Assembly: GCA_963832915.1 (NCBI GenBank)
Contig: CAWHWE010000013.1
Coordinates: 1,644 to 65,643 of the forward strand
Length of the DNA stretch: 64,000 nt
Reading direction: 5' to 3'
Origin: an uncultured Acidobacteriota bacterium
GTDB lineage: Bacteria > Acidobacteriota > Terriglobia > UBA7540
Made by a program: the position numbers and the translations under genes
Shown: one piece after another, positions 6,114 to 35,527 of the stretch
Numbering within the stretch: position 1 is the stretch's first letter
Layout of the letters: every line of letters begins with the position of its first letter
Notes under the pieces: model-generated
Seen by the model: only the letters and a program-made list of their open reading frames with translations
What the model was told of the DNA's origin: nothing
The model's database searches: none

Positions 6114-6154
6114 TCAAGGTGGAATCAGAGGTTCCGCTAGGGGAAGAAGCCATC

Positions 6155-7324: not shown

Positions 7325-7480
7325 TGGCGGAAGCGCTTTGGAGTGCGGTCCCGCGTGCGGGACCGCTCTTGTGCCGCGAGCTTGCTCGCGGTCATCTCGG
7401 CACGGAACGTCATCCAGGCCAGCAAGCTGGCCTGCAAGAAAGCGGCAGCAAGCTACCGCACTCCAAAGCTGGAGGTTTTT
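7325..7480. repeat. Structured intergenic element: outer stem GCGCTTTGGAGTGCGG/CCGCACTCCAAAGC enclosing three hairpins (GGTCCCGCGTGCGGGACC, CGCGAGCTTGCTCGCG, GGCCAGCAAGCTGGCC). It starts on the stop codon of the upstream gene.
   Basis: Palindromes read from the sequence. Confidence 0.6.
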
Positions 7481-10136: not shown

Positions 10137-10321
10137 GAGGGCCCAGCCGGGCCTCCGGTACTGACAACGGACTAAGAGAGCCGGATGTGCCGGCCCTCCC
10201 ACATAGACTCCCGCTGTCGCGTCGGCTGGATTGTGAATCGTCAACTCGATCCGCGTGGTGCGGCGGGGCTCGAGAGCGAAGGGAAAGTCCTCCAGCGGGT
10301 CGCGATCACCCCAATTAATGC

Positions 10322-11876
10322 TGTTGTGCCCCGATGATAATGTCCCCTTCTGTCACCGATAGAAATGTCCCCTAAACTCATGGCCTCTGAGGAGGCCACA
10401 GTGAAGAGGACGAGGATGGATGAGCGGGAGTTGAGGCGAGGGGCGGTGTTGTCACAGGTGGCGGGGAAGGGTTGGACTTTGGTGCAAGCTGCCGAGCGCA
10501 TGGGAGTGAGCTATCGGCAGGCGAGGCGATTGTGGAAGCGTTATCGAGTGAAGGGGACAAGGGGGCTGATGCATGGCAACGTGGGGCGGGCGTCGAACCA
10601 TGCCAAGCCGAAGAGTTTGCAGCGACGGGTCTTGGGGCTGATAGGGAAGAAGTACGGTGGAGAGCCCGGCGAGCGTTTCGGTCCCACGCTGGCGGCGGAG
10701 CACTTGGAGCAAGACGATCATGTCGCAATCGGGGTGGAGACGTTGCGGCAGTGGATGCTGGAGGCAGGATTATGGAGCCGGGAGCGGAGAGGGCGAGCGC
10801 ATCGGCGAAGGCGGGAGCGGAAAGCGCATTTTGGGGAGTTGGTGCAGTTGGATGGAAGTTTCCATGATTGGCTAGAAGGGCGAGGTCCGCGGGGTTGTCT
10901 GATGAACATGGTGGATGACGCGACGGGTACGACGCTGTGCCGGATGGGCAAGGAAGAGACGATCTGGGCGGCGGTGGGAGTGTTGGAGGCGTGGATGGAG
11001 TGCTACGGAGTGCCGCAGGCGTTGTACACGGACTGGAAGAACGTGTACGTGCGAGAGCCCAGCGCGCAGGAGCGGATGCGAGGAGAAGAGCCTGTGACGC
11101 AGTTCGGACGCATGTGCCGTCAATTGGGGATTGAGATCATCGCGGCCAGTTCGCCGCAGGCCAAGGGGCGGGTGGAGAGGAACCACGGGACGCATCAGGA
11201 CCGCCTGGTAAAGAAGCTTCGCGTACGAAACATAACGAGCCTAGAGGATGCCAATCGATACTTACAGGAGAAATACTGTGAGGAGCACAACACGCGTTTC
11301 GCGGTACGGCCGGCAGCCCCGCAGGACTTTCACTTGCCCAGCCCTGGGGTGCGGAAACTGGACAGCATTTTCCGGCTGGAGAGGGAGAGAGCGCTGAGCA
11401 ACGATTGGGTGGTACGCGATGAGAACCGCTTCTATCAGGTGGAGCGGCAGCGCCTGCATCACGCGCCAGCAAAGAGCAAGGTGAGGTTATGCGAGTGGGA
11501 GGATGGGAGGATCGAGATTCACTACCGAGGGCAGAAGCTCAGCTGGCAAGAGATCCCAGCACGCCCGCTCCCGAGAAAGCAAGAGGACGAACTTCCAGTG
11601 GCCATGGAGGCGACGAAGAAGAAGTGGAAACCAGGGCCGCACCATCCCTGGCGGATGGGCCCGTGGACTGACCGCACGCCGTTGGTCTCGGCCTCCGCTT
11701 CGCCCTAGACGCTCCGCCCTTCGGGCTCCGCAGGGCTTCGCTCCGGCCGAGACCAACGGCGTAACTCACCACTCCAGCAGAAACAAAGGGAGAGACAAAG
11801 TACGTGAAAGACAAAACCGAAAAAGAGGACATTTCTATTGGGTTAAGGATGGGGACATTTCTATCGGGGCTTGACA
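10322..11876 (+). mobile_element. ISNCY-family insertion sequence (~1555 bp). Its imperfect terminal inverted repeats are TGTTGTGCCCCGATGATAATGTCCCC... / ...GGGGACATTTCTATCGGGGCTTGACA. It is flanked by a 16-bp direct repeat TCACCCCAATTAATGC (10306-10321 and 11877-11892).
   Basis: IRs and direct repeats read from the sequence; the transposase lies inside. Confidence 0.7.
10365..11708 (+). CDS. ISNCY-family transposase (N-terminal HTH plus DDE integrase core)
   Basis: From memory, strong resemblance to proteins annotated 'ISNCY family transposase' (…VSYRQARRLWKRY…, …HRRRRERKAHFGELVQLDGSFHDWLEGRG…); internal start alternatives exist. Confidence 0.7.
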   Translation: MSPKLMASEEATVKRTRMDERELRRGAVLSQVAGKGWTLVQAAERMGVSYRQARRLWKRYRVKGTRGLMHGNVGRASNHAKPKSLQRRVLGLIGKKYGGEPGERFGPTLAAEHLEQDDHVAIGVETLRQWMLEAGLWSRERRGRAHRRRRERKAHFGELVQLDGSFHDWLEGRGPRGCLMNMVDDATGTTLCRMGKEETIWAAVGVLEAWMECYGVPQALYTDWKNVYVREPSAQERMRGEEPVTQFGRMCRQLGIEIIAASSPQAKGRVERNHGTHQDRLVKKLRVRNITSLEDANRYLQEKYCEEHNTRFAVRPAAPQDFHLPSPGVRKLDSIFRLERERALSNDWVVRDENRFYQVERQRLHHAPAKSKVRLCEWEDGRIEIHYRGQKLSWQEIPARPLPRKQEDELPVAMEATKKKWKPGPHHPWRMGPWTDRTPLVSASASP

Positions 11877-12229
11877 TCACCCCAATTAATGCTTGACGCA
11901 CCCCACTTTGTGAGCTAGGCTTTGCGCTTGATTTACGGTGTGCTGTACGGCAGGCGGGAGCAAAGGTAGTCCGAATGGTTGCTCCTCTATCTGACGAAGT
12001 CGATTTTAAACAGTTTGGGGATATCGTTATAGATCAACATTGCAGCATCGGTGACTGCGCGGTTGCGGTCCCTGGGTACGACATACGGATCTTACCTCCG
12101 TCCGGAATCACACAACTGTTCATCAACGAGTTAATAATGCGCGCGGCCGTCGCTGGATGAGCCAGCCGAGTTTTGTGGCGGCGTTTATACTCGCCATAGC
12201 AGTCATTCGGGTATCCGCCGGCAAGCACA

Positions 12230-13453
12230 ATGAAGAAAGGAGAATCTGCGGTGATTTCGATGCAAAAATCAAATTCAATACCTAAGTATTTATCGTTGTA
12301 TTGCTACATGTGGGATGTTCTTGACGAAGGGATTAATTCCTTCGCTCATTTGGTCAAGGATGCGGGATTGAATAACATCTCGATGGCATCAACCTATCAC
12401 GGGGGGAAGTCGCTTAACCCTCACAATCGGAAAAATCACGTATATTTTATCGAAGAGGGGGCAATCTACTTCAAACCTTCGGGTGGATTCTTTGATAAGA
12501 CAAAGATGAAGCCCAGAGTCAGCCGGCTCGTTGCCGAGCGTGATTACTGGAAAGACATCGTGACTGCTTGTGAGAAACGTGGAATAGGGACCACGGCCTG
12601 GAGTGTTTTTCTCCACAATTCGTATTTGGGAGCCACATATCCTGAGTGCACGACGCAAAACGTTTTCGGAGACCACTACCTCCACTCACTGTGTCCTTCA
12701 CAGCCGGCAGTCATGGATTATATGCGTGCCCTGGCTCAGAATCTCGCCGCATACCCCATACAGGCAGTAGAGTTCGAGTGTTTTGACTTCACTCCTTTTC
12801 ACCATTATTCTTTTCTGGAAAAGGAGGGGACGAAGCTGACGCCTTTCGCAGATCTCCTCATGTCCATCTGCTTTTGTCCGGCATGTTTGTTGCAGGCGAA
12901 GCAGCGGCACGTTAAAGGGGGAGCTGTTGCCAAACTAACCAAGGGTTGGATCGAACAATACTTTGATGGGAAACACCGGCAGGAGAGAGCGCTCGAATCC
13001 GAAATTGCCACTATCCCCGGCCTGGCAGAGTATCTCCAGATGCGCTTTGAGGTGCTGGCCAACTGCTTCGCCGAAGTTACTGGGACGCTGAAAGCTCATG
13101 ATAAAAGGGCAATCTATATTGTCATCGATCAAGAGCAGCGGCTGAATTACATGAGGGGGTTGGATTTGCTCCAGGTTGGGTCGCATATGGACGCCATCGA
13201 GGTGTTGTTCTACCACCGTAAGTTGGCCGATGCGCCTGGAATCGTACGGAAGATTCGCCGTGCTACCGGGAATATACCAGAGGTTTACTTTGCGGTGAGA
13301 CCAGGCTATCCCGACGCCGACCGAGCGAAGGAAGTCGTCCGCATGACAGACGCGGTCGTCAACGCGGGGGTGAACGGAATCTCCTATTACAACTTTGGTC
13401 TCCTGGAAAAGTTCCATATGAACTGGGTCAAGCAGGCTATCCGCGCCTTGTAG
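12230..13453 (+). CDS. Hypothetical protein in a low-GC (~43%) segment, probably horizontally acquired; family unrecognised, TIM-barrel-like hydrolase is a guess
   Basis: Clean 407-aa ORF; AT-rich codon usage, a sharp contrast to its neighbours; lies immediately 3' of the IS. Confidence 0.45.
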   Translation: MKKGESAVISMQKSNSIPKYLSLYCYMWDVLDEGINSFAHLVKDAGLNNISMASTYHGGKSLNPHNRKNHVYFIEEGAIYFKPSGGFFDKTKMKPRVSRLVAERDYWKDIVTACEKRGIGTTAWSVFLHNSYLGATYPECTTQNVFGDHYLHSLCPSQPAVMDYMRALAQNLAAYPIQAVEFECFDFTPFHHYSFLEKEGTKLTPFADLLMSICFCPACLLQAKQRHVKGGAVAKLTKGWIEQYFDGKHRQERALESEIATIPGLAEYLQMRFEVLANCFAEVTGTLKAHDKRAIYIVIDQEQRLNYMRGLDLLQVGSHMDAIEVLFYHRKLADAPGIVRKIRRATGNIPEVYFAVRPGYPDADRAKEVVRMTDAVVNAGVNGISYYNFGLLEKFHMNWVKQAIRAL

Positions 13454-13563: not shown

Positions 13564-14568
13564 ATGAGATTCTTCCTTGGAGATGGCGTCATGAAACCTG
13601 CAGACTTTAATCCGGAAAAGTTCGATCGAGGTGGGAAATACACGCTTTACCTCGAATTGGGGCCGGCCGCCAGTAATATCGAATTGCCGGTTTTGCTGGT
13701 CCGTGGAAGTCGGCCGGGAAAAAGACTTGTGGTATCGGCAGCCGTGCACGGCGACGAATACGAAGGGGTCCGAACCATATATGATGTGTACCACGCACTC
13801 GACCCCGCGAACCTGAGCGGAGACTTCCTTTCCGTGCCCGTGTCAAACCCACCCGCATTCTGGAACGGCACCCGGTCGAGTCCGCTCGACGGCGGCAATC
13901 TCGCACGTGTTTTTCCCGGGAGTTTGGAAGCTGGCCCTACCGCCGCGATTGCGTATCATATGGCGGCTTCGATTATTGCGCATGCCGACCTGTATCTGGA
14001 TCTGCATAGTGCTGGAGTCAAGTTGCTGATGCCCACGATGATCGGTTATGACGCCGGGGATGTGCGTTCTCGGGACGCGGCGTATGCCTTCGGTGCAAAG
14101 GTCCTCTGGGGACATCCCGGAACTGCGCCGGGCCGCACCATAACGTTCGCGGCCCAAAAAAATATCCCTTGGCTGTACACTGAGGCGCATGGGGCGGGCC
14201 GCATCGACCCCGCAGATCTCGAAATATTTGTAGAGGGCGTTTTTAATCTGTTGCGTCATTTAAACATCATATCCGGCCCGCTTCGAACTAACCCGGTAGA
14301 GTGGCATCTATACGGCGCCGGGGACATTGATAAAGGTTTTGTGGCCAGTCAGCGCGGCTTCTTAGTGACATCGGCCACCTTATTCCAAAGGGTCCGCGCT
14401 GGGGACAGGCTGGGGTATCTTTGCGACCTACTAGGGAAAACGATTGAAACCTACCTCGCCCCAACCGACGGAGTAGTCGCGATGATCAGAGCGTTCCCGG
14501 CGGTCGAACCTGGCGAACCCTTGTTCTTATTAACTGACCTGCTGGGGGACAGCTCGCAAACGAGCTAA
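13564..14568 (+). CDS. Succinylglutamate desuccinylase/aspartoacylase (AstE/AspA) family Zn deacylase
   Basis: …SAAVHGDEYEG… (the HGxE zinc motif) and the fold size of the AstE/AspA family. Confidence 0.7.
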   Translation: MRFFLGDGVMKPADFNPEKFDRGGKYTLYLELGPAASNIELPVLLVRGSRPGKRLVVSAAVHGDEYEGVRTIYDVYHALDPANLSGDFLSVPVSNPPAFWNGTRSSPLDGGNLARVFPGSLEAGPTAAIAYHMAASIIAHADLYLDLHSAGVKLLMPTMIGYDAGDVRSRDAAYAFGAKVLWGHPGTAPGRTITFAAQKNIPWLYTEAHGAGRIDPADLEIFVEGVFNLLRHLNIISGPLRTNPVEWHLYGAGDIDKGFVASQRGFLVTSATLFQRVRAGDRLGYLCDLLGKTIETYLAPTDGVVAMIRAFPAVEPGEPLFLLTDLLGDSSQTS

Positions 14569-14649
14569 ACAACAAGCTCCGGGCGCCGATGTCAAAGTAG
14601 ACGCGCCAGCGAGTTTGGAAAACGCGGGTCAGAAACTGAAGGAGTAGCT

Positions 14650-15999
14650 ATGAAACGGTTTGCCATTGTTTGTGTTTTGATTCTCGCCTGCGGCCTCGTA
14701 GTGTGGCGTACCCAGTCGGCCCGCGGCGCAGCGCCGGGCCTCAAGATCGGCGTTGCCAGCGAAACGATCACTCCCTTCTTGGATATACCGTTGGTGGGGT
14801 ATTATTACCCTCGCATGCCGGACGGCGTGCATGATGATCTCCACGCTAAAGCGTTGGTGATCGATGATGGGCACGATCAGATCGTGTTGGTTGCATGCGA
14901 CCTCGTGGGGCTCCCCAGGGAAGCGGCGGAAGAGGCGCGCCGGCAGATCAGCGCCCGCTTTAAAATTCCAGCAGATCATATTCTGATTAGCGCCACGCAC
15001 ACGCATACTGGCCCCGAGCCAGTTCCAAATTACGTCAGCAATTTGGGACATTGGATCGCAGACAGCGTCCTTACTGCGGAAGGCAAGAAGCAGCAAGCGC
15101 TCCTTTGGGTTGCCACCGAGCAGGAACCCGTCCTGGCCCACAATCGCCGCTATCTCATGAAAGACGGCACCGTTCAGACGAATCCCGGGTTTCTGAATCC
15201 CAAAGTTGTGCGGCCGGTCGGTCCTATCGATCCCCGAGTCGGTGTGCTCTTCGCTGAGGACGAAAAGCACAACCCGATGATGACTTGGGTAAATTACGCG
15301 ATGCATTTGGATACTGTCGGTGGGACCTGGATTTCTTCGGACTATGCGTATTACCTGGCCCGGACCCTGGCAGAGGTGAAAGGGGCCGACATGCTTACCA
15401 CTTTCACCATTGGCGCGGCTGGGGACATTAATCACTGGGACGTGCAGCGGCCCGGCCCGCAACGAGGTTTCGAAACTGCGCAGAAGCTGGGAGAAACGCT
15501 GGCAGGTGACGTCGTCAAAGCTTACACGCACCTTCAGGCGCTGGATTCCGTTCGTGTCAAAGCGGTCTCCGAAACCATCCAACTCCCCCTCCACGAGATC
15601 ACGGAGCAAGAGGTGAAAGAATCCGAAAAAATTGTTGCTCAACCTCCTCCTATGGGCGTGGACTTCACGTTGGACCGAGTTAAGGCCGAAAAGGTTATGC
15701 ATGTTTATAAGCGGAAGGGGCAAGCTCTTCAGGCGGAAATACAGGTTTTGACCGTTGGACCGGTTGCCTTCGTGGGTATCCCGGGCGAATATTTCGTCGA
15801 GCTCGGGCTGAGGATTCAGAAAGAGTCTCCGTTCCCATATACTTTCATAGTCGAGCTGGCGAATGGCGAGCTCGGATACATCCCCACCCAGAGGGGTTTC
15901 GAGGAGGGCGGTTACGAACCTACTTCCACGCCCCTTGCCCCGGGCAGCGGCGAAAAGATGGCCGACAAAGCCATCGAGCTCTTGAACCGGTTAAAGTAG
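14650..15999 (+). CDS. Neutral/alkaline ceramidase-like amidohydrolase, secreted
   Basis: Signal peptide; …GYYYPRMPDGVHDDLHAKALV… and SATHTHTGPEP resemble the N-terminal domain of neutral ceramidases. Confidence 0.55.
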   Translation: MKRFAIVCVLILACGLVVWRTQSARGAAPGLKIGVASETITPFLDIPLVGYYYPRMPDGVHDDLHAKALVIDDGHDQIVLVACDLVGLPREAAEEARRQISARFKIPADHILISATHTHTGPEPVPNYVSNLGHWIADSVLTAEGKKQQALLWVATEQEPVLAHNRRYLMKDGTVQTNPGFLNPKVVRPVGPIDPRVGVLFAEDEKHNPMMTWVNYAMHLDTVGGTWISSDYAYYLARTLAEVKGADMLTTFTIGAAGDINHWDVQRPGPQRGFETAQKLGETLAGDVVKAYTHLQALDSVRVKAVSETIQLPLHEITEQEVKESEKIVAQPPPMGVDFTLDRVKAEKVMHVYKRKGQALQAEIQVLTVGPVAFVGIPGEYFVELGLRIQKESPFPYTFIVELANGELGYIPTQRGFEEGGYEPTSTPLAPGSGEKMADKAIELLNRLK

Positions 16000-16014
16000 A
16001 GAAGGAATAAAACG

Positions 16015-17043
16015 GTGGCTCAATCATTCTGGCTGGGGATGGGAACAATATTATTGAGCGGGGTCGCTTATGGAGTCTTTGCAATACCGCTGAAGTATTC
16101 CCGGCGTTGGCGATGGGAGAACACCTGGCTGCTTTATGCGCTTCTTTCGATGGTGATTCTGCCCTGGATGCTGGCGATTGGATTTGTCCCTCAGCTCCGG
16201 GCCCTCTGCTCGGGCACACCGAGCCGGCTCCTTTTGCTTCCCTTGGGTTTCGGTTTCATCTTGGGATTCGCGCAGGTCGCCTACGGCATAGGTATAGTGT
16301 CGGTGGGGATTTCCATCGCAGTTTCCGTGGTGTCGGGCGTCAGTTGTGTTACTGGCGCTCTAGTCCCGCTGTTGGTCTTACAACCTTCGGATCTGCTTCG
16401 CACCAAGGGTATTCTGCTTTTAGTGAGCTTGCCCATCTTGCTTGCAGGCGTTGTTCTTTATGGCATGGCCGGTTACCGGAGAGAAAAAGAGCAGGAGAGG
16501 CTTGCTTCTGAAGCTCATGTCTATCCTTGGGGCTTCGGCACAGGGCTCGCGATCTGCATTTTCACCGGTGTTTTCGGGTCAAGCATCAATCTCGGTTTCG
16601 CTTTCAGTGGTGAAATTATTCGCAAGAGCCTCGCCTTAGGCGGGAGTTCCACGACCTCAACATTTGTGGTCTGGACCCTCGTATTCGGAGCCGGCTTCAT
16701 TCCAAACCTGGTCTATTGCTCCTACCTTCTATTCCGCAATCGCGGCTGGTCACGATTTCTGGCCAAGGGTTGGCCGCGAGAAGCAACGTTCGCGACTGTC
16801 ATGGCGGTGCTTTCGCTCGGAGCCTTCATCGGCTACGGGAGGGGCGCGACGGTCATGGGCAGGTATGGTACATCAGTGGGCTGGGCACTCTTCGTTGCTG
16901 CCACGGTGGTGGCTTCTAACGTGGCAGGCCTCATCATGGGCGAGTGGAGAGACACCTCCCAACACACACGCCGGCTGCTTATTGCAGCAGTGTTCGTGCT
17001 GCTGGCGACAGTCGGTATCCTTAACCTTGGTGGAATACTCTAG
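16015..17043 (+). CDS. rhaT: L-rhamnose-proton symporter
   Basis: 342 aa and ~10 TM; N-terminal KYSRRWRWENTWLLYALLSMVILPWMLA parallels E. coli RhaT [28 protein letters not shown]. Confidence 0.75.
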   Translation: MAQSFWLGMGTILLSGVAYGVFAIPLKYSRRWRWENTWLLYALLSMVILPWMLAIGFVPQLRALCSGTPSRLLLLPLGFGFILGFAQVAYGIGIVSVGISIAVSVVSGVSCVTGALVPLLVLQPSDLLRTKGILLLVSLPILLAGVVLYGMAGYRREKEQERLASEAHVYPWGFGTGLAICIFTGVFGSSINLGFAFSGEIIRKSLALGGSSTTSTFVVWTLVFGAGFIPNLVYCSYLLFRNRGWSRFLAKGWPREATFATVMAVLSLGAFIGYGRGATVMGRYGTSVGWALFVAATVVASNVAGLIMGEWRDTSQHTRRLLIAAVFVLLATVGILNLGGIL

Positions 17044-17204
17044 GCCAGCAGTGAAGAAACAGCCCTCTCCCTTGGGGCAGATCTTTACCCATATCGCTTG
17101 CTGGACACCGGGGGTGGGTGCATTCAGCCCCCGGAGAGAGGGTGTTCCGATGCCGGCGTTTTCACCAGCCCGTCAGCCGACGGGGACGGGTGAGACCCAA
17201 TTCC

Positions 17205-18677
17205 CTACTTGTATCCCACATCTCGTTCGAAGGGGAACATAGGTTTCGGTCTATAGTGATAGATAAAGTTGCCGGAATTTGCCGCCGTGATTCCCGGCGT
17301 ATCAACCTCGATGATATGCGCCGAAACTTCTTCGTAGGCCGCGCGAGGAGCAACCGCTCCCTTTGCCACTAGCACTCGTTTTAATTCCGGCTTGATGCCC
17401 AGACTTCGGACCTGTTCAAGGCTAAAGGGCGCCATGCGCAAAGAAGTAAGAACAATGGTGTCACCTTCAGGGCTCTCGACGACGGCTGTCAAACCTTGGT
17501 TGTTCCGAAGCTTGCCCCCATGTCGCACCTTGTACTCCTCAAAATATCCGTCGTGGAGCAAACGAATGCGACCCGAGATGGGTACCGGCCGGCCGTGTAA
17601 GTTGTCAGTTTTCCCGCCAACCTCGAGTGAGATGTTCTGCCCAACCCCGGCACTGAGGCAGGCCTGAACAGCTTTCGGGTCATACAGGACCACCAGAAAA
17701 TTGTGTATGCCAGCCTTTTGAAGTGCGTCGAGAATCACCGTGCTGTCGCCCGGGCTGCCTCCGCCCACGTTGTCGCCCACATCGAGCAGGGTGGTCGGCG
17801 TCCGTTGTCGCTGCCCTATCTCCTTTACGGTTTCGGAGACCGGCGTCCCTGTTATGTTCCATTCCTCACGTCGTTCCCATGCGCGTAGGGCCAGCGCCCG
17901 CGCTTCCCGGCGTGCCAGTTCCTCATCCCCGTCCGTCACCACCAAGAATGCAGGCCCCATTTCTTCAACATCTGCATAGGCAAACCCGGGAGCGATGCTG
18001 GCCGAGATTATGCCTGGCCGTTTGATCAAGCTCTCCAGATCCCGATACAGTGACGCTAATGGTTCTGCCTGCGTTCTCTGAGCGAGAATGGTTATCAAGA
18101 CGGGCGGCTTCTCAAGGGCCTGGACGGGGCGGATACGTCCTTCCAAAGTCTCTTGCAAAATCCTGGCCGCTTCCCTTCCCCGCTCACGCTGGTCGAGGTG
18201 CGGATTGGTCCGATAGATCATTGTTGCCGTAACACCTGAGATCATGCGGGGAGAGACATTTGCGTGCAGGTCAAGCGTCATGACGATAGGCAGGTCCGGA
18301 CCGACAACACCACGGATCTTTTCCACCGTGTTTCCGTCAGCGTCCCGGATGTGTTGGGCAACCATGGCGCCATGCAAGGCAAGCAGCAGTCCGTCCAGTG
18401 ACTCGCCGGCGAGGCGCGTGAGTATTTCTCCCAGAATCTCCTCATAGACCCCCTGCTCGAGGGGTCCTGCGGGCATGGCCCCGGCACTGACCAACGGTAT
18501 AATTTGCGTTCCCCCGGCGTCCGACTGCTCGATCATGCCCGCTATTTCGTGTTGGGACTGGGACCATTCACGAATGATGTCTTTGCCAAAGAGCACGCCC
18601 CCTTCCTTGAACATTTGACGGGTAGTGGGGTTGGGATTAAAGCTGTTCGATTCGTGGGCAAATGAAACCAGACCTAC
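17205..18677 (-). CDS. M81-family metallopeptidase (MlrC / microcystinase C-like, DUF1485 plus MlrC_C)
   Basis: …VGLVSFAHESNSF… N-terminus typical of MlrC. GTG start at 18677 follows a GGGAG RBS; the ORF-track ATG at 18785 adds 36 unrelated residues. Confidence 0.65.
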   Translation of the reverse strand, partial: VGLVSFAHESNSFNPNPTTRQMFKEGGVLFGKDIIREWSQSQHEIAGMIEQSDAGGTQIIPLVSAGAMPAGPLEQGVYEEILGEILTRLAGESLDGLLLALHGAMVAQHIRDADGNTVEKIRGVVGPDLPIVMTLDLHANVSPRMISGVTATMIYRTNPHLDQRERGREAARILQETLEGRIRPVQALEKPPVLITILAQRTQAEPLASLYRDLESLIKRPGIISASIAPGFAYADVEEMGPAFLVVTDGDEELARREARALALRAWERREEWNITGTPVSETVKEIGQRQRTPTTLLDVGDNVGGGSPGDSTVILDALQKAGIHNFLVVLYDPKAVQACLSAGVGQNISLEVGGKTDNLHGRPVPISGRIRLLHDGYFEEYKVRHGGKLRNNQGLTAVVESPEGDTIVLTSLRMAPFSLEQVRSLGIKPELKRVLVAKGAVAPRAAYEEVSAHIIEVDTPGITAANSGNFIYHYRPKPMFPFERDVGYK

Positions 18678-18884
18678 TTTTTTCACTAGCGAGACTCCCT
18701 TCCAGCAGTAGTTTGTAGTACCTTCGCGGCGCTCGAAGATTTCTCCGTGTGCTCCGTGGCCAAAAGAACCTAACACAGAGATCACTGAGACCCTCCGTGC
18801 TCTCTGTGTTTACGCTTTCCAGGCTCGGAGAACACGGAGAATTGCCTTTTGGTTGCGACCGCGGGCCGCGCTATAGAGTAATGC

Positions 18885-20198
18885 TCAATTCGATCGCCTA
18901 AGCCCATCACAAGCCTTACGCACTGCTGCCAGAGTAACGCCAACGTCAGCTTCAGTATGCACGGCTGAGACGTACCATCGGCCGTCGGGCAACAAATAAA
19001 TCCCTTCCCCGAGCATCCCTTCAATGAATTGGTCCCGCATTCCATCGTCCCGGTTCAGGGTCTCGCGATAGTTGCTCATCTTCTTGGCAGCAGTGAAGCT
19101 GATATGGAATGCAGCCCCGACTCCGTTGATCAAGGCGGGGATGCCTGCTTCAGCCAGAGCAGCTTCAATGCCCTTCTTGAGGTATTCACCCGTTTGTTGG
19201 GTGCGTATTAAAGCGGAGCCACCATCGGCAGACAGAACCTCCAGCGCCGCCTCGGAGGCTGCAAGAGCCAGCGGGTTGCCATTGAAAGTGCCTGCCTGCA
19301 CCACGCGGCCCTTGGGAATCAGTTCCATAATCTCCCTTTTTCCCGCCACCACGCTCAACGGGTAACCAGCGGCGACGGCCTTTCCGAAGGTGGCCAGATC
19401 AGGTGTCACGTTGAAGAGACCCTGTGCTCCTTTTGGATGCACGCGAAATCCTGTTATGACCTCGTCAAAAATCAGAACGATTCCGTACCGCGTCGCCAGC
19501 TCCCGCAAGCTTTCGAGAAAGCCGGGGGAAGGCATCAGGCAGCTACTATTACAAAGGATCGGCTCGGTGATAATCGCGGCAATCTCCTGATAATGTTCAC
19601 GGAGAGTATTTTCAAGTTCTTTAAGGTCATTCCACGGCAGGATGTAAACATCGTCGAGCACGCGCTCGCTCTGCCCCTCGGTGCCCATCTGCTTTGCGTT
19701 GGTTCCGTCTTCTGCCACCTTCGGGTGATAATTTATGAGGATGTTATCGAACCAGCCGTGATAATGGCCCTCGAACTTAATGAACTTCCGCCTCCCCGTA
19801 TGCGCCTTTGCCAGGCGCAAGGCCAGGTGGACTGCTTCCGAGCCCGTGCTGTTAAAGGCCACAAGCTGCGCGCAAGGGACCATTTCACATATCTTGCGCG
19901 CGACGGCGGTTTCCAAGCGATGTTGCGCGCCGATCAGGCAGAACTTCTCGAGCTGGCGCCGGACGGCGGCGATTACTGCGGGATGACTGTGCCCAAGCAT
20001 GAGCGGCCCCCAGGCAAGTCCGTAGTCCAAGTACTGGTTGCCATCCACGTCAACAATTCGGTTCCCCGAAGCGGATTCAAAGAACAGAGGAACCGGCTTG
20101 CAGGCGGCGCGGAGCATGCTGCTGACCCCACCGGCGAGGTAGCGCTTTGACTCGTTAAACATCTCAGCCGAACAGGCATAAGTTCTCATATCAGTCAC
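18885..20198 (-). CDS. Class-III (aspartate aminotransferase family) PLP aminotransferase, glutamate-1-semialdehyde aminomutase-like
   Basis: …LIFDEVITGFR… and …TFGKAVAAGYP… (PLP-lysine region) are class-III hallmarks. Confidence 0.8.
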   Translation of the reverse strand: MTDMRTYACSAEMFNESKRYLAGGVSSMLRAACKPVPLFFESASGNRIVDVDGNQYLDYGLAWGPLMLGHSHPAVIAAVRRQLEKFCLIGAQHRLETAVARKICEMVPCAQLVAFNSTGSEAVHLALRLAKAHTGRRKFIKFEGHYHGWFDNILINYHPKVAEDGTNAKQMGTEGQSERVLDDVYILPWNDLKELENTLREHYQEIAAIITEPILCNSSCLMPSPGFLESLRELATRYGIVLIFDEVITGFRVHPKGAQGLFNVTPDLATFGKAVAAGYPLSVVAGKREIMELIPKGRVVQAGTFNGNPLALAASEAALEVLSADGGSALIRTQQTGEYLKKGIEAALAEAGIPALINGVGAAFHISFTAAKKMSNYRETLNRDDGMRDQFIEGMLGEGIYLLPDGRWYVSAVHTEADVGVTLAAVRKACDGLRRSN

Positions 20199-20595
20199 CC
20201 CCTATAAAGGTCGAACCCCTTGATGACCAAGCTTCGGTATAATCTTCTTACCTGCGAGCAGCCATCAGTATGAATCTAAGCCCTGAGAAAATCTCCGTGT
20301 TCAGGATCTGGTCGTGGTTTCGAATCCCCAGGTTCACGGTTTGCTCAAAACGGCTCAGCAATCATTCCATGGGGGGCGCGCTCGGCAGACCACGGTCGAA
20401 TCTCAGGCGGAGGGTCTTCCAGAGTAAAATGGGCGTTCTTTTTTATAGTCCGCCGCGAACACCACCGATGTCAAGCTTTTTACTAGTTGTCGATTGTGGT
20501 AGCATCTGCTTCCTGACGGGGCGCGTGTCCGAGGGCCTGTGGGCGTTTTTGTGCTTCGGTCCTGGTCGAAATTCAGAGGGAGTGCTCAGATCAAG

Positions 20596-21660
20596 ATGAC
20601 TTCCAGAGAAAGAGTGATGGCTGCCTTCCAACACGAAGAACCCGACCGCGTGCCAGCGTGGTGCGGGTCGTCGATTGAGTTTTGGGAAAAGGCTAAGCGG
20701 ACCTCCGGGCTTCACGACGAAGGACTACGTCTGCGCTTCGGTGATGACTTTCGCCGGGTTTTTCCCGTCTATGCCGGGCCCCAGTTTACCCTGTCCCCTG
20801 GCGCGACTTCCCGAACCCCCTTCGGCATCGAGCGCGAGGGTCTCGGTTACGGGCAACCCAAAAGTCATCCGTTATCCAGCGCCGCTCTGGCGGAAGTTCA
20901 CGCCTATCCCTGGCCCGAGCCGCGGTGGATGGATGTTTCTCACATCCGTGCCGAAGCGGACAAGTACCAAAGGCAGTACGCAATTCTGGGTGGGGATTGG
21001 TCACCCTTCTTCCACGACGCCGTAGACATGCTGGGCATGGATGTTCTGTTCCTTAAAATGTACGACGAACCGGAAGTTGTGGATGCGGTCGTGCAGCACA
21101 TCATGGATTATTATGTGGGCGTCAGCCAGCGAATTTTCGATGCCGCTGCCTCAGCCATCGACATTTTCTTTATTGGAAACGATTTCGGAACTCAGCGGGG
21201 CCCTCTGATGAGCCCGAGTCTCTTCCGGCGGTTCATCCTGCCTCACCTCAAGCGACTGGCTCGCCTGGGCCATGAATATGGATTGAAAGTCATGATGCAT
21301 TGTTGCGGTGGGTACGCTCCTCTCATCCCCCAGATGATCGAGGCTGGACTGGATGGCCTGCATGCGGTCCAGCCGTCTTGTGATGGGATGGATCTGGCGA
21401 CGCTGAAGCGTTCCTTCGGTGACAAGATCCTCTTCAATGGCGGGATCGACTCTCACCATGTGCTGATCCGGGGAACACCCGAGTTCGTCCGCGAAGAAGC
21501 GAGAAAAGTTCTCGACATCATGAAACCGGGTGGAGGCTATGTGGCAGGCGCCAGCCACGACTGGATTCTCGAGGAGACGCCCGTGGAGAACGTTCTGGCC
21601 ATGTTTGACGCGATCTGTGAATTCGGCAGCTACAACTCTGGCGATTCTCGATCGCGTTGA
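20596..21660 (+). CDS. URO-D/MtaA-like family protein, paralog 3
   Basis: …FQHEEPDRVPAW… signature; start chosen at ATG 20596. Confidence 0.7.
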   Translation: MTSRERVMAAFQHEEPDRVPAWCGSSIEFWEKAKRTSGLHDEGLRLRFGDDFRRVFPVYAGPQFTLSPGATSRTPFGIEREGLGYGQPKSHPLSSAALAEVHAYPWPEPRWMDVSHIRAEADKYQRQYAILGGDWSPFFHDAVDMLGMDVLFLKMYDEPEVVDAVVQHIMDYYVGVSQRIFDAAASAIDIFFIGNDFGTQRGPLMSPSLFRRFILPHLKRLARLGHEYGLKVMMHCCGGYAPLIPQMIEAGLDGLHAVQPSCDGMDLATLKRSFGDKILFNGGIDSHHVLIRGTPEFVREEARKVLDIMKPGGGYVAGASHDWILEETPVENVLAMFDAICEFGSYNSGDSRSR

Positions 21661-21739
21661 CCTCTCGAATACGATGAAGATGAAAACCCCTGGGCAACTA
21701 CAGCAAATATTCCGGGGGTTCGTTGTTAGGAGGCAATTG

Positions 21740-22600
21740 ATGTCTGGTTTCCGAGGCCGATCCACTAACCGACGCCTGTTGTTGCTCCTTGGGGCTCTCG
21801 CAGTATTCTTATTCCAAACCACTATATTCGTTTCCTTCTTAGTGGGCAGCGCGCCGGGAAGCATCCACTTGGTTCTTCGGACTCGCGTACAGCCATTCAA
21901 GGGGAGCGGCCAGTGGGTGGAGGTCAACTTCGTCGAGAATCTCCCGCCTAAGGAAACGGCGATTGTAATCTGCGACATGTGGGATAAGCATTGGTGCAAG
22001 GGCGCTACAGGACGAGTGGATGCGCTCGCCCATCGTATGTCACCACTCCTGAAATTGGCTAGAGCGCGGGGCGTGCAGATCGTCCACGCCCCCTCAGACG
22101 TCATGGATTTCTATAAGGATTATCCCCAAAGGCGTCTGATGCAGAGCTTGGCAAAGGTTCAGCCACCGCAGGCCCTCGATCTTTCGGATCCGCCGCTGCC
22201 GATTGATGATTCCGACCGCGGATGCGATACGCCGGGAGATAAGGAGCACCAGGCCTGGAGCCGCCAGCATCCTGCAATTGATATTGAGCCTCAGGACGTA
22301 ATTTCCGACGATGGAAACGAAGTCTATAGCTTTTTGCATGAACGAGGCATCCAATACTTGTTCATAATGGGGGTGCACGCCAACATGTGCGTCTTGGGGC
22401 GATCCTTTGCGATCAGGCAGATGACGCGTTGGGGCATCCACTGCATCTTGGTCCGGGATCTCACGGATGCCATGTATAACCCCGCAATGAAGCCCTATGT
22501 CTCGCACGGGCAAGGTACGCAACTGGTGATTGAGCACATTGAGAAGTACTGGTGCCCATCAATTCTGAGTGCGGACCTGCAAACGGGCCTGAAACCGTAA
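21740..22600 (+). CDS. Isochorismatase-like cysteine hydrolase with an N-terminal membrane anchor
   Basis: …IVICDMWDKHWC… and …MGVHANMCVLGRS… resemble the isochorismatase-family catalytic D/K/C pattern; AGGAGG RBS 6 nt before ATG 21740. Confidence 0.55.
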   Translation: MSGFRGRSTNRRLLLLLGALAVFLFQTTIFVSFLVGSAPGSIHLVLRTRVQPFKGSGQWVEVNFVENLPPKETAIVICDMWDKHWCKGATGRVDALAHRMSPLLKLARARGVQIVHAPSDVMDFYKDYPQRRLMQSLAKVQPPQALDLSDPPLPIDDSDRGCDTPGDKEHQAWSRQHPAIDIEPQDVISDDGNEVYSFLHERGIQYLFIMGVHANMCVLGRSFAIRQMTRWGIHCILVRDLTDAMYNPAMKPYVSHGQGTQLVIEHIEKYWCPSILSADLQTGLKP

Positions 22601-22665: not shown

Positions 22666-24015
22666 ATGGCAATCAACAGAAGGCGATTTTTGGAAAGGAG
22701 TATTCAGGGAGGATTCGGTGTCGCGGCAGGCGTGTACGGATTACAAGCGGCATCGAAAGCGGCTGCTGCGAGCGACAAGGTTGTCGTGGGGGTGATGGGA
22801 GTGGGAGGCCGAGGGACTTTCCTGACGCAATTGTTCGCCTCCAGGCCGGACGTTGAAATTGCCTACATCTGCGATGTGGATAGCCGGAAGTTCCCGCACG
22901 CAGTAAAGCTTGTGGAAGACATCAAGGGAAGAACCCCCAAGACAGTTGGAAATTTCCAACGCATCCTCGAGGACAAGAATGTTGATGCGATGGTTTGCGC
23001 CACGCCTGACCATTGGCATGCTATGGCCACCGTCCTCGCCTGTCAAGCAGGTAAGGACGTTTACGTCGAAAAACCGGCTTCCCATAACATCTGGGAAGGC
23101 CGGAAGATGGTGGAGGCAGCGCGCAAGTACACGCGAGTGGTACAGGTCGGGATGCAAAATCGGAGCAGCACATCTGGCAAGAGTGCGCGCGAGATGATTC
23201 AGTCCGGAAAGCTGGGTAGTATTCATCTTGTGCGTGTCTACAACATGTTAAACCGGGAGCCTGTGGAGAGAACGCCAAACGCCGCAGCGCCGGAAGGATT
23301 TGATTGGAACATGTGGGTGGGTCCCGGACCACTGGTCCCCTATGACCCCATGTATTTCAAGAGGGTTTTCTGGGATTTTAACGGAGGGCTCATGACTGAC
23401 GATGGAGTTCATCAATTGGACTTGGCTCGCATGGTTATGGGCCTGTCCTATCCCAAGTCCGTTCACCATGCGGGCGGAAAGCTCTTCTTTAATGACATCT
23501 CGGAAACCCCCGACACGACGATTGTGACCTATGAGTATGACAAGCTGCGGCTGGTATTCGAACAGACCGTTTGGACTCCTTATATGAAGAAGACTCCCGA
23601 CAGTATAAGGGAAAGTCTGACCCAGTTTCCCGATTGGTTCCCCTTCAACGCGACCAGAATAGAAATATTCGGACGCAAGGGCCTGATGCTTCTGGGGCGA
23701 CAAGGAGGAGGATGGCAGCTCTACAACGAGGAAGGGAGCGTGATTGCGACGGGCAAGCAGAGGCACTCGGAAATGCAGGCGGGACATGTGGAGAACTTTA
23801 TAAGTTGTATCCATAGCCGGAAGCACCCCAATGCCGACATCGAGGAGGGCCACACTTCCGCCGCGCTATGCCACATGGCAAATATCTCCTATCGGTTGGG
23901 GGACCGAAAGCTGGAATTCGACAGTTCCAAAGAGGCCTTTGTAGATAATAAGGAAGCAAACCATTACTTGAAGCGGTCTTATCGCAATCCCTGGGTGATA
24001 CCCGAGAGCGTGTAG
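22666..24015 (+). CDS. Gfo/Idh/MocA-family oxidoreductase, TAT-exported
   Basis: Twin-arginine signal MAINRRRFLE; Rossmann VGVMGVGGRG; EKP motif VYVEKPASHN. Confidence 0.85.
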   Translation: MAINRRRFLERSIQGGFGVAAGVYGLQAASKAAAASDKVVVGVMGVGGRGTFLTQLFASRPDVEIAYICDVDSRKFPHAVKLVEDIKGRTPKTVGNFQRILEDKNVDAMVCATPDHWHAMATVLACQAGKDVYVEKPASHNIWEGRKMVEAARKYTRVVQVGMQNRSSTSGKSAREMIQSGKLGSIHLVRVYNMLNREPVERTPNAAAPEGFDWNMWVGPGPLVPYDPMYFKRVFWDFNGGLMTDDGVHQLDLARMVMGLSYPKSVHHAGGKLFFNDISETPDTTIVTYEYDKLRLVFEQTVWTPYMKKTPDSIRESLTQFPDWFPFNATRIEIFGRKGLMLLGRQGGGWQLYNEEGSVIATGKQRHSEMQAGHVENFISCIHSRKHPNADIEEGHTSAALCHMANISYRLGDRKLEFDSSKEAFVDNKEANHYLKRSYRNPWVIPESV

Positions 24016-24125
24016 TCTCGGAAAAGGACGAGACCGGAAAGTGCATCGCTTGTGGTTTCGGATCGAGAGGCAACAGGCGCCCTTCTCTCTCGGCACCAAA
24101 CCTGGTAGTGGGTCAGTTTGGTGTT

Positions 24126-24212
24126 GTAGCGGCGATCCCGCAAGGCCGGATCGCCAAATGGCGGCGTCCCGATGAGATCGGGACAGGTTCCGCCGCCTCT
24201 ACATCAAACTGA
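24126..24212. repeat. Nested-hairpin element: ~30-bp outer stem GTAGTGGGTCAGTTTGGTG...CATCAAACTGACCCACTAC around GTAGCGGCG [GGCGATCCgcaaggccGGATCGCC] [GTCCCGATgagATCGGGAC] CGCCGCCTCTAC
   Basis: Palindromes read from the sequence. Confidence 0.6.
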
Positions 24213-24257
24213 CCCACTACTCAAAACTTGAAACCAAAAACAACCACTCGAGGTTTT

Positions 24258-25298
24258 ATGGCCATTGAAGACTATGTCAGTTCTTCGCGTCGGAAGTTCC
24301 TCAGGAGTGTGGCGGGAGCCGGAGCCATGGCCGGCCTGTCGAGCATTCGGTCCAGCGATGCCGAACCGGGCAGAACTCTCAGCCGAGTGCAGACTTGTTA
24401 TTTTTCAAAACACTTGCAATGGCTCAACTGGGATCAAATGGCGGAGACCGCCGCTGAATTGGGGTTTGATGGTATCGATGTGACGGTGCGAGACGGAGGC
24501 CACGTCCTGCCTGAGCGCGTGAAAGAAGACCTGCCCAAAGTCGCGAGAATTGTCAGGAAGGCTGGCTTGGATATCCCGATGATTACGGCTGGAATCGTGG
24601 ACATCCACTCGCCTTATGCGGAAGCCATTATTCGCACGGCCAGCGAGGTTGGTATTCATCGCTACAGGTGGGGTTGGTTTTCCTGGTCGGATACAGCCAA
24701 GGAACCCGATCTGTCAAACTTCCACGCGAGCCTTGGAAAGGCCTCCGCAATCCTTATTGATATCCCTGGCCGGCTCGCCGAGTTGAAAAAGCGTGTTGCG
24801 GAGTTGGCGGAACTGAACCGGAAGTTCAACGTCTGTGCCATGTACCATAACCACTCAGGCTCAATGGTGGGCGCTTCAGTGTGGGATCTTTGGGTGCTGC
24901 TTAAGGACTTCGACCCACGATGGGTGAGTTCCAATTTCGACATTGGCCATGCCACTGTAGAGGGCGGATTGGGCGGATGGATCAATAGCACACGTCTGAT
25001 GACCCCTTTTATTAGGGGGACAGCAATCAAGGATTTCAAATGGGAGAGAAATGCGAAAGGCGTTTGGGAACCCCAGTGGTGTCCGCTTGGGGAAGGGATG
25101 GTGAACTTCCGGGCGTTCTTCGCCATGTTGAAAGAAGGTAACTTCTCCGGCCCTGTGCAGTTGCACACTGAATACCCGCTGGGCGGAGTGGAAAATGGCG
25201 CTCGAACATTAACCTTGGAAAAGGAAACGGTCTTGGCTGCGATCCGCAAAGACCTTGCTGCCTTAAAGGCGTGGATGAGAGAGGCACAATTGGTTTAG
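24258..25298 (+). CDS. Sugar-phosphate isomerase/epimerase (xylose-isomerase-like TIM barrel), TAT-exported
   Basis: TAT motif SSRRKFLRS; AP-endonuclease-2/xylose-isomerase-like TIM signatures (…NFDIGHATVEGG…). Confidence 0.75.
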   Translation: MAIEDYVSSSRRKFLRSVAGAGAMAGLSSIRSSDAEPGRTLSRVQTCYFSKHLQWLNWDQMAETAAELGFDGIDVTVRDGGHVLPERVKEDLPKVARIVRKAGLDIPMITAGIVDIHSPYAEAIIRTASEVGIHRYRWGWFSWSDTAKEPDLSNFHASLGKASAILIDIPGRLAELKKRVAELAELNRKFNVCAMYHNHSGSMVGASVWDLWVLLKDFDPRWVSSNFDIGHATVEGGLGGWINSTRLMTPFIRGTAIKDFKWERNAKGVWEPQWCPLGEGMVNFRAFFAMLKEGNFSGPVQLHTEYPLGGVENGARTLTLEKETVLAAIRKDLAALKAWMREAQLV

Positions 25299-25409: not shown

Positions 25410-25520
25410 CCCCTTGGGAGTCTGTGTGATAACTCGATATTTCGCCCTTTTCCACAATGCAAGTGACTGATTCTCCGTTGGCGAAAACGCGAAATCAGAG
25501 GTTGTCACACAGACTCCTTG
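25410..25520 (+). promoter_or_regulatory. Long imperfect stem-loop in the 5' leader of URO-D paralog 4 (GGAGTCTGTGTGATAAC ... GTTGTCACACAGACTCC, 17-bp arms ~60 nt apart): candidate attenuator or riboswitch-like leader
   Basis: Inverted repeat read from the sequence; function inferred. Confidence 0.3.
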
Positions 25521-25597
25521 GGAGAGGTCAAAACCCAATTCCCTTCCGCCATTGCGGAGAAATCCCGGCTAGCTTCTTCACATCGGAAGGAGATGAA

Positions 25598-26731
25598 ATG
25601 ATGACTCACCGAGAGCGAATTTTAGCAGCCCTGAAGCACAAGGAGCCAGATCGGGTTCCTCTTGACCTGGGCGCTACGGGAGCCACCACGATATCGGTCA
25701 AGGCCCATGAGCGATTACGGGCCCACCTTGGCCTCCCGTCGGAGCCGCCACCCGCTGTGTTCTCCACCCGCTCCACGACGGTGGTTCCTGACGAAGCTAT
25801 CCTGCGTCGTTTTGACGTCGACGCCCGCCCCCTTTCACTTGGAAATCCAACGGACCGGCCAGAGCGTAAGCTTTCCGAGGATACGTTGTTGGACGAGTGG
25901 GGAGTAACCTGGACAAGGCCTGGTGGCACCCATTACATAAACTCCGACGGCCCTTTCTGCCATCTTGCAGACCCTGCCCTTCAGGACCTCGAGAAGGCCG
26001 ATTGGCCCGACCCGGCAGACGCAGGCCGCTTTGAGGGGCTTCGAGATCGAGCCCGGAGACTGCACAAAGAGACGGATTACGCCGTGATCTTAAACCTCGG
26101 CATAGGCCCCGTCCATGAGTGCCAGTATGTTCGCGGCTATGCGACGTGGCTCGAGGATCTCTTGCTCCGCCCCGTCTTCTCCGAAGCCCTCCTCGACCGG
26201 GTCACCGACATCATGATTCAGATGGCGAATTGCGCCTTGGAAGAGGCGGGCGCGTACGTTGATTTGGTCATGTATGGCGACGATATCGCCACCCAGAATG
26301 CTACCCTGCTCCGACCGGAATTGTATCGGCGGATGATTAAGCCCCGGCATAAGGGGATAGCCAACGCCATAAAGCGTCACGGGAAGCCGATTGTTTTCCA
26401 CTCCTGCGGTTCTGTTTACGCCCTTATCCCAGACCTGATTGAGGTGGGAATCGATGCCCTGAACCCCGTCCAGGTTTCAGCGGCAAATATGGCTACGGAG
26501 CGCCTTAAGCAGGAGTATGGACGTGAATTGGCTTTTTGGGGAGGAATCGACACGCATCGAGTGCTGCCCACCGGAACGCCTGCGGAAGTGCGCGAAGAAG
26601 TGAAGCGCCGCATCGACGATTTGCACGACAATGGCGGTTACGTCCTTTGTGCCGTGCACAACATCCAGCCCGAGGTTCCCCCGGAGAACATCGTGGCGAT
26701 GTATGACGCTGCCCTTGAGTACGGGCGCTAA
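25598..26731 (+). CDS. URO-D/MtaA-like family protein, paralog 4
   Basis: …[13 protein letters not shown]… signature; AAGGAG RBS 6 nt before ATG 25598. Confidence 0.7.
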
Positions 26732-35498: not shown

Positions 35499-35527
35499 TG
35501 TATAGAATCAAGCCAATCGGAGGAACC

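Follow-up and report, generated by a model that had tools for sequence, protein, structure and literature searches.

A conserved acidobacterial module of deacylase, M81 hydrolase and aminotransferase genes that may serve the catabolism of N-acylated amino sugars

The ong cluster of Pseudoalteromonas prydzensis, dedicated to oxidized chitin in the form of N-acetylglucosaminic acid (GlcNAc1A), encodes a pathway that has been called 'akin to D-amino acid catabolism' (Jiang et al. 2022, PMC9537276). Oxidized chitooligosaccharides enter via TonB-dependent receptors (TBDRs) and are split by a GH20 enzyme, and GlcNAc1A is then imported by an SSS transporter. OngB, a D-aminoacylase-derived protein, deacetylates GlcNAc1A, the pyridoxal phosphate (PLP) enzyme OngC and RidA carry out the deamination, and 2-keto-3-deoxygluconate (KDG) passes into central metabolism (PMC9537276). 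OngB evolved from amino-acid deacylases (PMC12017989). Here, we describe a block of genes in a 64,000-nucleotide stretch of DNA from an uncultured Acidobacteriota bacterium (contig CAWHWE010000013.1; the whole stretch is called the window below) that resembles ong in its functional layout, but is built from other protein families. Among the decomposers of peat and soil, Acidobacteriota are dominant but little understood, and much of the organic nitrogen of soils is bound in amino sugars. With moderate confidence, we propose that the region belongs to a locus with which a peat or soil acidobacterium degrades an N-acylated amino sugar; the substrate class is read from the genomic context, and the order of steps given below is a proposal of the same kind.

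The open reading frames (ORFs) of the window were listed and their proteins scanned with Pfam and NCBIfam. The core of the block consists of the following genes.

12230–13453, plus strand: GH-like (beta/alpha)8 barrel protein of 407 amino acids (407-aa protein), cytoplasmic; AlphaFold2 (AF2) model and Foldseek, without a Pfam family.
13564–14568, plus strand: AstE/AspA-family zinc N-acyl-amino-acid deacylase; PF24827 (AstE_AspA_cat), 101 bits.
16015–17043, plus strand: RhaT-family (DMT) sugar:H+ symporter; Pfam RhaT, 65 bits.
17205–18686 (longest ORF to 18785), minus strand: M81 (MlrC-like) zinc amidohydrolase, cytoplasmic; DUF1485 and MlrC_C.
18885–20198, minus strand: class-III PLP aminotransferase of the glutamate-1-semialdehyde (GSA)-aminomutase-like subgroup; Aminotran_3, 223 bits.

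The original prediction had described positions 13564 to 22600 as a set of amide-bond-cleaving enzymes interleaved with a rhamnose symporter gene. The genes that it named are present at or near the places it assigned to them, and so is the HGDEYEG motif of the deacylase. It omitted a URO-D/MtaA-like gene inside the interval and the 407-aa GH-like protein, the most informative partner. The 407-aa gene and rhaM, both upstream of the interval, are part of the same conserved block.

Synteny was analyzed with three genes (ceramidase-like, M81, and 407-aa) as anchors in turn. The M81-anchored scan took one genome per species, comprised 80 loci, and was scored by tblastn; individual loci are cited by number (L004 and so on). 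The core was linked at 45–85% identity in at least five gene orders. The full order of the window was kept in L004, L005 (M81 92% identical) and L008 (81%). In L011 (84%), an aminotransferase–M81 pair is convergent with RhaT–AstE–unkB (unkB is a family introduced below) and the ceramidase-like gene is absent, and L009 and L012 (81%) retain aminotransferase–M81 and AstE. Other arrangements were 407-aa–AstE (78%)–M81 (70%) in L101 and L103, aminotransferase–unkB–407-aa–AstE in L108, and, on one strand of L138, unkB (54%)–407-aa (55%)–TBDR remnant–AstE (75%)–M81 (70%)–lactonase–RhaT (67%)–PALP. L092 combines RhaT (50%)–aminotransferase (46%), unkB–407-aa (52%)–TBDR–AstE (63%)–lactonase fragment, M81–RidA, and an IclR gene; its M81 protein is a 34% paralogue. 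RhaT-like orthologues were thus linked to AstE and M81 in L011 (86%), in L138 and, with the paralogous M81, in L092. Among the distant loci (M81 48–62% identical), an AstE orthologue (44–59%) was found within 10 kb in 9 and an aminotransferase orthologue (46–50%) in 8. An orthologue of AstE and/or the aminotransferase lay at most 10 kb from the M81 gene in 14 of the 80 species-level loci, and AstE orthologues of 44–85% identity did so in 11 of the 80. The aminotransferase gene is directly upstream of the M81 gene, and this pair is kept in L004–L012, L072, L076 and L086.

Linkage that persists through at least five arrangements argues for functional coupling of the core, which is a real, conserved and uncharacterized catabolic module. 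A chance juxtaposition in a gene-dense catabolic island, held in close relatives by recent common ancestry, would fit the restriction of full synteny to M81 identities of at least 81%, the presence of indels and an insertion sequence (IS) in the region, and the behavior of the ceramidase-like, isochorismatase-like and URO-D-like genes. However, neutral inheritance would not link the core in at least five gene orders in several acidobacterial lineages. Chance is therefore excluded for the core, but suffices to explain the ceramidase-like and isochorismatase-like genes, which are linked only at M81 identities of at least 81%; for the region as a whole, we regard it as very unlikely. The proposed coupling of the amide-cleaving enzymes to the RhaT-like gene accordingly stands for three of the five (AstE/AspA, M81 and class-III aminotransferase), for which linkage survives rearrangement, but not for the ceramidase-like and isochorismatase-like enzymes.

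We propose import, N-deacylation and amine removal for this module because the loci hold the functional slots of ong, filled by non-homologous proteins. Like ong, the acidobacterial loci have a TBDR (in L092, L105 and L138), a glycosidase-like protein, a secondary transporter, an N-deacylase, PLP-dependent amine removal with RidA (in L092), and a local repressor. The slots are occupied by the GH-like barrel and unkB, by a RhaT-like or SSS transporter (the latter in Bryobacterales loci), by a lactonase and a sugar-1-dehydrogenase-like SDR, by a DHDPS-type aldolase, and by an IclR or GntR regulator. In contrast to ong, the window has an AstE/AspA protein instead of OngB, a class-III aminotransferase instead of OngC, a RhaT-like transporter instead of the SSS protein OngIT, and a GH-like barrel instead of GH20, none of them homologous to the Ong proteins. 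The M81 hydrolase, as well as the lactonase of relatives, are additions on the acidobacterial side. GH20 OngA, RidA OngD, KdgK and a TBDR were not found in the window block, and no Amidohydro-family gene was present among the ORFs of the window that encode 200 aa or more; an OngB/D-aminoacylase-family gene occurs only beside 407-aa paralogues, in L091 and L098.

The active site of the deacylase is intact. The family domain is present with the HxxE...H zinc site, the conserved Arg and the catalytic Glu, and the motifs HGDEYEG (in the context AAVHGDEYEG), NLARVFPG, DLHSAG and TEAHGAG align to 3cdx and to DoeB (6twl). The best NCBIfam match was the DoeB equivalog with 100 bits vs. a cut-off of 402.7, which falls short of orthology to DoeB, AstE or aspartoacylase; DoeB, an N-acetyl-diaminobutyrate (DABA) deacetylase, was also the second-best match in the PDB. 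An exact-sequence look-up of the protein returned no match, and the nearest named genomes are uncultured Acidobacteriota metagenome-assembled genomes. To our knowledge, all characterized AstE/AspA enzymes deacylate N-acyl alpha-amino acids. Chemically, an N-acyl-2-amino-2-deoxy-aldonate is an N-acyl alpha-amino acid.

The similarity to DoeB suggests a further interpretation, ectoine-like or N-acetyl-diamino-acid catabolism, in which the AstE-like protein would play the part of DoeB and the aminotransferase that of DoeD, with M81 standing in for DoeA. The doeABCD system likewise pairs an AstE/AspA deacylase, DoeB being a member of the family, with a class-III transaminase, the logic of hydrolase, deacylase and transaminase would fit, and a PALP partner is weakly similar to EutB. 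However, the window deacylase is far under the DoeB cut-off (100 vs. 403, rounded), the transaminase belongs to a different subgroup (GSA-aminomutase-like, not DoeD- or EctB-like), DoeA, DoeC and ectoine transporters are absent, and the context is of carbohydrate type. We consider ectoine-like catabolism quite improbable.

The M81 protein matched DUF1485 (315 bits) and MlrC_C (164 bits). We assumed the 493-aa form (to 18686), because homologues start there. It shares with MlrC the family, the two-domain architecture and the zinc ligands E, D, H and H, with E12, D139, H141 and H163 aligning to E39, D167, H169 and H191 of MlrC (7ylq; PMC9982164), but the two are only about 30% identical, and the genomic context of the window gene is entirely different. 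MlrC, the sole characterized M81 enzyme, is a peptidase (PMC9982164), and our literature search found no M81 function described outside microcystin degradation, nor this combination of genes. Microcystin degradation itself was ruled out by a score of 179 bits vs. a cut-off of 999 for the microcystinase model NF041767 and by the lack of mlr-type neighbors (mlrA, mlrB, mlrD) of the M81 gene in the window. The aminotransferase is closest to GSA aminomutase, yet under every equivalog cut-off (382 vs. 527 for the hemL equivalog TIGR00713, 391 vs. 398 for NF000818), so that a true HemL (GSA aminomutase) was ruled out as well. Its PDB neighbors are GSA aminomutase, PctV-type enzymes, D-phenylglycine aminotransferase, and beta-transaminases.

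These two proteins raise the question of a module for unusual peptides or N-acyl amino acids, in which an M81 peptidase would free a beta- or D-amino acid, AstE would uncap it, the GSA-aminomutase-like transaminase would deaminate it, and the sugar genes would be mere neighbors. The activity of MlrC, the beta-transaminases and the D-phenylglycine aminotransferase among the PDB relatives, and the N-acyl amino acid substrates of known AstE/AspA enzymes are all in line with this, as is a D-aminoacylase-family gene adjoining 407-aa paralogues. It would also agree with a second, paralogous module in L061, L063, L067, L069, L071, L077, L079 and L082 (Versatilivorator and Terriglobia genomes), in which a class-III aminotransferase (about 30% identical to that of the window) is directly upstream of M81 (47–48%) with an SSS transporter downstream. 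Against a peptide module, the conserved partners of the core are of carbohydrate type (RhaT-family, GH-like barrel, lactonase, SDR, sialidase-like, mutarotase-like, NanE-ROK), and a peptide or amino-acid transporter or a further peptidase recurs in none of these loci. On balance, we find it unlikely. Because this second M81 lineage, too, comes with a class-III aminotransferase and an SSS transporter, the data suggest that M81 enzymes generally release amines to be processed by a partner transaminase. Separately, M81 genes of 63–65% identity (L016, L017, L022–L024, L027, L028) have neither AstE nor the aminotransferase as neighbors and are followed by two DHDPS-family genes and an SDR, and one of these DHDPS proteins is 60–63% identical to the DHDPS of the module in L025.

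Upstream of the core lie two features that bear on the sugar side of the block.

9798–10136, plus strand: RhaM-family (L-rhamnose mutarotase-like) protein, 112 aa; Pfam rhaM, 114.6 bits.
11927–12154, plus strand: C-terminal remnant of unkB, 76 aa; tblastn with the unkB proteins of L011, L092 and L108.

The original prediction held that the gene set is not explained by a standard sugar operon, and for L-rhamnose this was borne out. RhaB, RhaA and RhaD are absent, only a generic sugar-acid dehydratase is present, and RhaT and RhaM are both under their equivalog cut-offs: the best NCBIfam model for the RhaT-like protein was NF010022 (226 bits vs. 369; 63–226 vs. 369–523 over all RhaT models), and the RhaM-family protein scored 47 vs. 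99.6 for YiiL_rotase. The position of rhaM is kept in L004, L005, L008 and L096. With nan and rha operons, the block shares RhaT- and RhaM-family genes and, in distant loci, NanA-like, NanM-like and sialidase-like BNR proteins, SSS transporters and GntR-FCD regulators. It differs in that the window lacks RhaB/RhaA/RhaD and NanK/NanE/NagA/NagB, and that nothing in those operons corresponds to its amidohydrolases and aminotransferase. The presence of genes of the RhaT and RhaM families gives a hint of a 6-deoxy sugar.

The 407-aa protein has no Pfam or NCBIfam match, no signal peptide, and a small family (34 matches). Its AF2 model (pLDDT 88.5) is a (beta/alpha)8 barrel, for which Foldseek returned the C-terminal domain of PgaB as best match, followed by GH42, GH35 and GH20 enzymes; the PgaB domain is a hydrolase of deacetylated poly-N-acetylglucosamine (dPNAG). 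The residues C155, C214, C216 and C219 are invariant and form a C...CxCxxC cluster, similar to the Zn-Cys4 site that certain GH42 enzymes possess. A homologue is linked to AstE in L092, L101, L103, L108 and L138. Paralogues in L091 and L098 adjoin a D-aminoacylase/OngB-family amidohydrolase (320 bits to 1m7j, 216 to PpOngB 9kb1), which looks like a non-orthologous displacement of the deacylase, and those in L104 and L106 adjoin a RhaT-like gene and a NanE-ROK fusion. The usual upstream neighbor of the 407-aa protein is unkB (about 410–450 aa at full length, with a signal peptide in one member), found intact directly upstream of the homologue in L092, L100–L102, L104, L105, L108 and L138. The window remnant matches unkB at 56–74% identity over only 68–78 aa.

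Core partners in Bryobacterales and other distant loci include a DHDPS/NanA-like lyase, BNR sialidase-like and Kelch/NanM-like proteins, an SSS symporter, and a GntR-FCD regulator. Distant loci also contain an SDR that reaches the cut-off of the glucose-1-dehydrogenase subfamily and, in many cases immediately upstream of M81, a Thr-synthase-like PLP enzyme. In the window, the core is flanked by rhaM, a sugar-acid dehydratase (MR_MLE), an oxidoreductase of the GFO/IDH/MocA family with a twin-arginine translocation (TAT) signal, and a xylose-isomerase-like TIM protein.

From this comparative context, the likeliest class of substrate would be an N-acyl-2-amino-2-deoxy-aldonic acid (N-acyl-hexosaminate), or a sugar oxidized to one, possibly 6-deoxy. 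The RhaT-like H+ symporter would bring in the monomer; in relatives, the TBDR, a secreted unkB and the GH-like 407-aa barrel may represent a glycoside stage, and the lactonase may open a C1-oxidized sugar. In the cytoplasm, the AstE/AspA-type zinc deacylase, in which no signal peptide was found, would take the N-acyl group off the alpha-acylamino-carboxylate, and the M81 zinc hydrolase might act on that substituent or on another amide or aminoacyl group. Next, the freed amino group would be stripped by the GSA-aminomutase-like class-III PLP enzyme, a task that elsewhere could fall to the Thr-synthase-like PLP enzyme and RidA, and the resulting keto or keto-deoxy acid would be handed to nearby dehydratase, aldolase and dehydrogenase genes. 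The list of substrates in the original prediction is thereby narrowed: N-acyl amino sugars are favored by the comparative context, but nothing points to ceramide or lipoamino acids.

We put forward the specific N-acyl-hexosaminate route only tentatively. Equally tentative is the suggestion of a new non-phosphorylative pathway of soil Acidobacteriota, in which AstE/AspA, M81 and GSA-aminomutase-like enzymes would replace OngB and OngC, together with the 407-aa family and unkB. Candidate substrates for it are chitin products oxidized by lytic polysaccharide monooxygenases (LPMOs), oxidized N-acetylmannosamine (ManNAc) from nonulosonic acids, and 6-deoxy analogues from bacterial glycans. Legionaminic or pseudaminic acid, which are di-N-acyl, 9-deoxy nonulosonic acids, are possible substrates that we favored at first and then downgraded, as nothing specific spoke for them; in the literature, we found neither a catabolism of these acids nor an oxidative ManNAc pathway. 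If the proposal is correct, the M81 family would gain its first physiological role outside microcystin degradation, two unannotated families would gain functions, and there would be a second, convergently assembled route for oxidized or N-acylated amino sugars, with marker genes by which the turnover of amino-sugar nitrogen could be followed in metagenomes.

Several observations weigh against an amino-sugar locus. None of the genes reaches a substrate-specific equivalog model, and for the BNR, Kelch and DHDPS partners the assignment goes no further than the family, with scores under equivalog cut-offs. The block has no obvious SDR-type sugar 1-dehydrogenase, lactonase, aldolase or kinase. M81 is without an assigned step, and its sole characterized relative is a peptidase. 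In most loci with an M81 gene of 62–66% identity, AstE and the aminotransferase are missing. The strand layout divides the set into at least three transcription units, contrary to the idea of a single operon, and a promoter and terminator scan gave signals at or below shuffle expectation, so operon boundaries are not callable. Finally, because unkB is truncated, the IclR gene mostly deleted and an IS inserted, the window copy may not be fully functional.

The interval contains three further genes.

14650–15999, plus strand: secreted short neutral-ceramidase-fold zinc amidase, 449 aa, catalytic domain only; N-terminal domain of Ceramidase_alk, 40 bits, and fold.
20539–21660 (probable start 20617), plus strand: URO-D/MtaA-CmuA-like protein; URO-D, 107 bits.
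21674–22600, plus strand: divergent isochorismatase/cysteine-hydrolase-like protein; weak Pfam match and 6xix.

The ceramidase-like protein starts with a Sec-type signal peptide, MKRFAIVCVLILACGLVVW...ARG. Its Ceramidase_alk match (40 bits vs. a cut-off of 32) covers only profile positions 2–104 of 509, and with the equivalog NF041649 it scored 26.6 vs. a cut-off of 1200. Foldseek with the AF2 model (pLDDT 88) matched only the neutral ceramidases 2zws and 4wgk (TM-score 0.68–0.72, E about 1e-24), and H117/H119, H219, E380 and Y422, which we take to be the Zn ligands, are fully or almost fully conserved across the aligned family. The protein thus has the fold of the neutral-ceramidase catalytic domain and the His/His/Glu/Tyr positions, but lacks the C-terminal domain of neutral ceramidases (449 aa vs. 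630–670 aa). The suggested signal-peptide check also found a hydrophobic N-terminal membrane anchor or signal in the isochorismatase-like protein, but, as noted above, nothing in the AstE-like deacylase.

With regard to linkage in related genomes, the core is kept, but homologues of the ceramidase-like gene that are 82–84% identical (L001, L002) lie beside type VI secretion system (T6SS) and methyltransferase genes, and no further gene of the window is found closer than 10 kb. Because of these unrelated T6SS neighbors, we excluded the gene from the core. The module lacks it in L011, L012, L092 and L138 (in L009 and L012, the contig does carry it, at a distance of about 40 kb), and none of the distant M81 loci (48–62% identity) has an orthologue. 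One 61% homologue (L136) is part of a glycan locus with GH20, GlcNAc 2-epimerase, DegT aminotransferase and heparinase II/III genes, and another has an unrelated gene context; in the literature, we found no ceramidase-like enzymes described in glycan loci. These findings bear on the degradation of ceramide, sphingolipid or lipoamino acids, in which the secreted enzyme would free a long-chain base or amino acid for the other enzymes. The intact fold and Zn ligands and the predicted export would agree with such a role. However, the gene is not a conserved partner, the protein lacks the C-terminal domain and scores 27 (rounded) vs. 1200 with the equivalog, the 61% homologue sits in a glycan locus, and the block is without lipid-metabolism genes, all of which makes lipid degradation highly improbable.

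The isochorismatase-like gene is present, but the family call is weak. The whole-protein Pfam score was 29.7 bits vs. a cut-off of 27, with no single stretch passing, NCBIfam gave nothing, and the best PDB match was the cysteine hydrolase 6xix (E 0.008), with Asp and Cys aligned and the Lys not located. The longer ORF runs into the gene before it, so the true start is at about 21674 and not 21530. Beyond close relatives, a homologue was found in only 1 of the 80 M81 loci (L054). The ceramidase-like and isochorismatase-like proteins are exported, lineage-specific additions outside the conserved core. The URO-D-like gene is linked to the core in close relatives only; besides the Pfam match, its protein scored 89 bits with the NCBIfam model mtaA_cmuA, which is under the cut-off, and 33 bits with its best PDB match, MtaA (4ay7). 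The island holds four such URO-D/MtaA-CmuA-like paralogues (6050–7324, 7343–8599, 20539–21660 and 25457–26731) with a mutual identity of 22–29%, and no corrinoid-protein partner was seen for them. At a guess, they might O-demethylate methylated sugars.

The window is 89–95% identical to L004 at the nucleotide level, and its core ORFs are intact. Relative to L004, it carries an extra MR_MLE gene and a 1.69-kb IS insertion (10190–11876) between rhaM and the unkB remnant. The IS contains a helix-turn-helix (HTH)/transposase ORF (10365–11708) and 17-nt perfect terminal inverted repeats (10356–10372 and 11851–11867). An 18-bp direct repeat, ATCACCCCAATTAATGCT, lies at 10305–10322 and 11876–11893. 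The truncation of unkB predates the IS insertion, since L004, L005 and L093–L095 share the remnant. A further remnant was identified on the other side of the core.

20214–20376, minus strand: remnant of an IclR-family regulator gene; tblastn with the IclR protein of L004.

Only residues 92–131 (72% identity) and 244–258 of the L004 IclR protein were recovered. The gene is intact in L004 and L005, between the URO-D-like and aminotransferase genes, and L092 has an IclR gene too; the local IclR regulator therefore appears to have been deleted in the window genome.

The island at about 6–28 kb contains the four URO-D-like paralogues, the sugar-acid dehydratase, the TAT-signal GFO/IDH/MocA protein, the xylose-isomerase-like TIM protein, and an alcohol dehydrogenase (ADH), and the window outside it is of housekeeping type (IF-2, NusA, TruB, PdxS). 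The best matches of the MR_MLE sugar-acid dehydratase (8601–9710, plus strand) are talarate/galactarate, arabinonate and gluconate dehydratases, and a function as dipeptide epimerase was rejected in favor of this assignment. L004 and L008, which are collinear in other respects, lack the gene, and the island is therefore polymorphic for this indel. At 22666–25298 (plus strand), the GFO/IDH/MocA oxidoreductase is followed by the xylose-isomerase-like TIM protein, a periplasmic sugar-oxidation pair found in close relatives only; the oxidoreductase shows partial likeness to BT_2158-type glycoside 3-dehydrogenase (139 bits, under the cut-off). Elsewhere in the window, a second transposase (DDE_3 with HTH domains) adjoins a 427-aa ankyrin-repeat protein (33406–34494, minus strand, and 35480–36763, plus strand). 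Also outside the block are genes of amino-sugar type, namely a CE4 polysaccharide deacetylase followed by a ROK-family kinase (38535–40227, minus strand) and a second CE4 deacetylase (28470–29315, minus strand).

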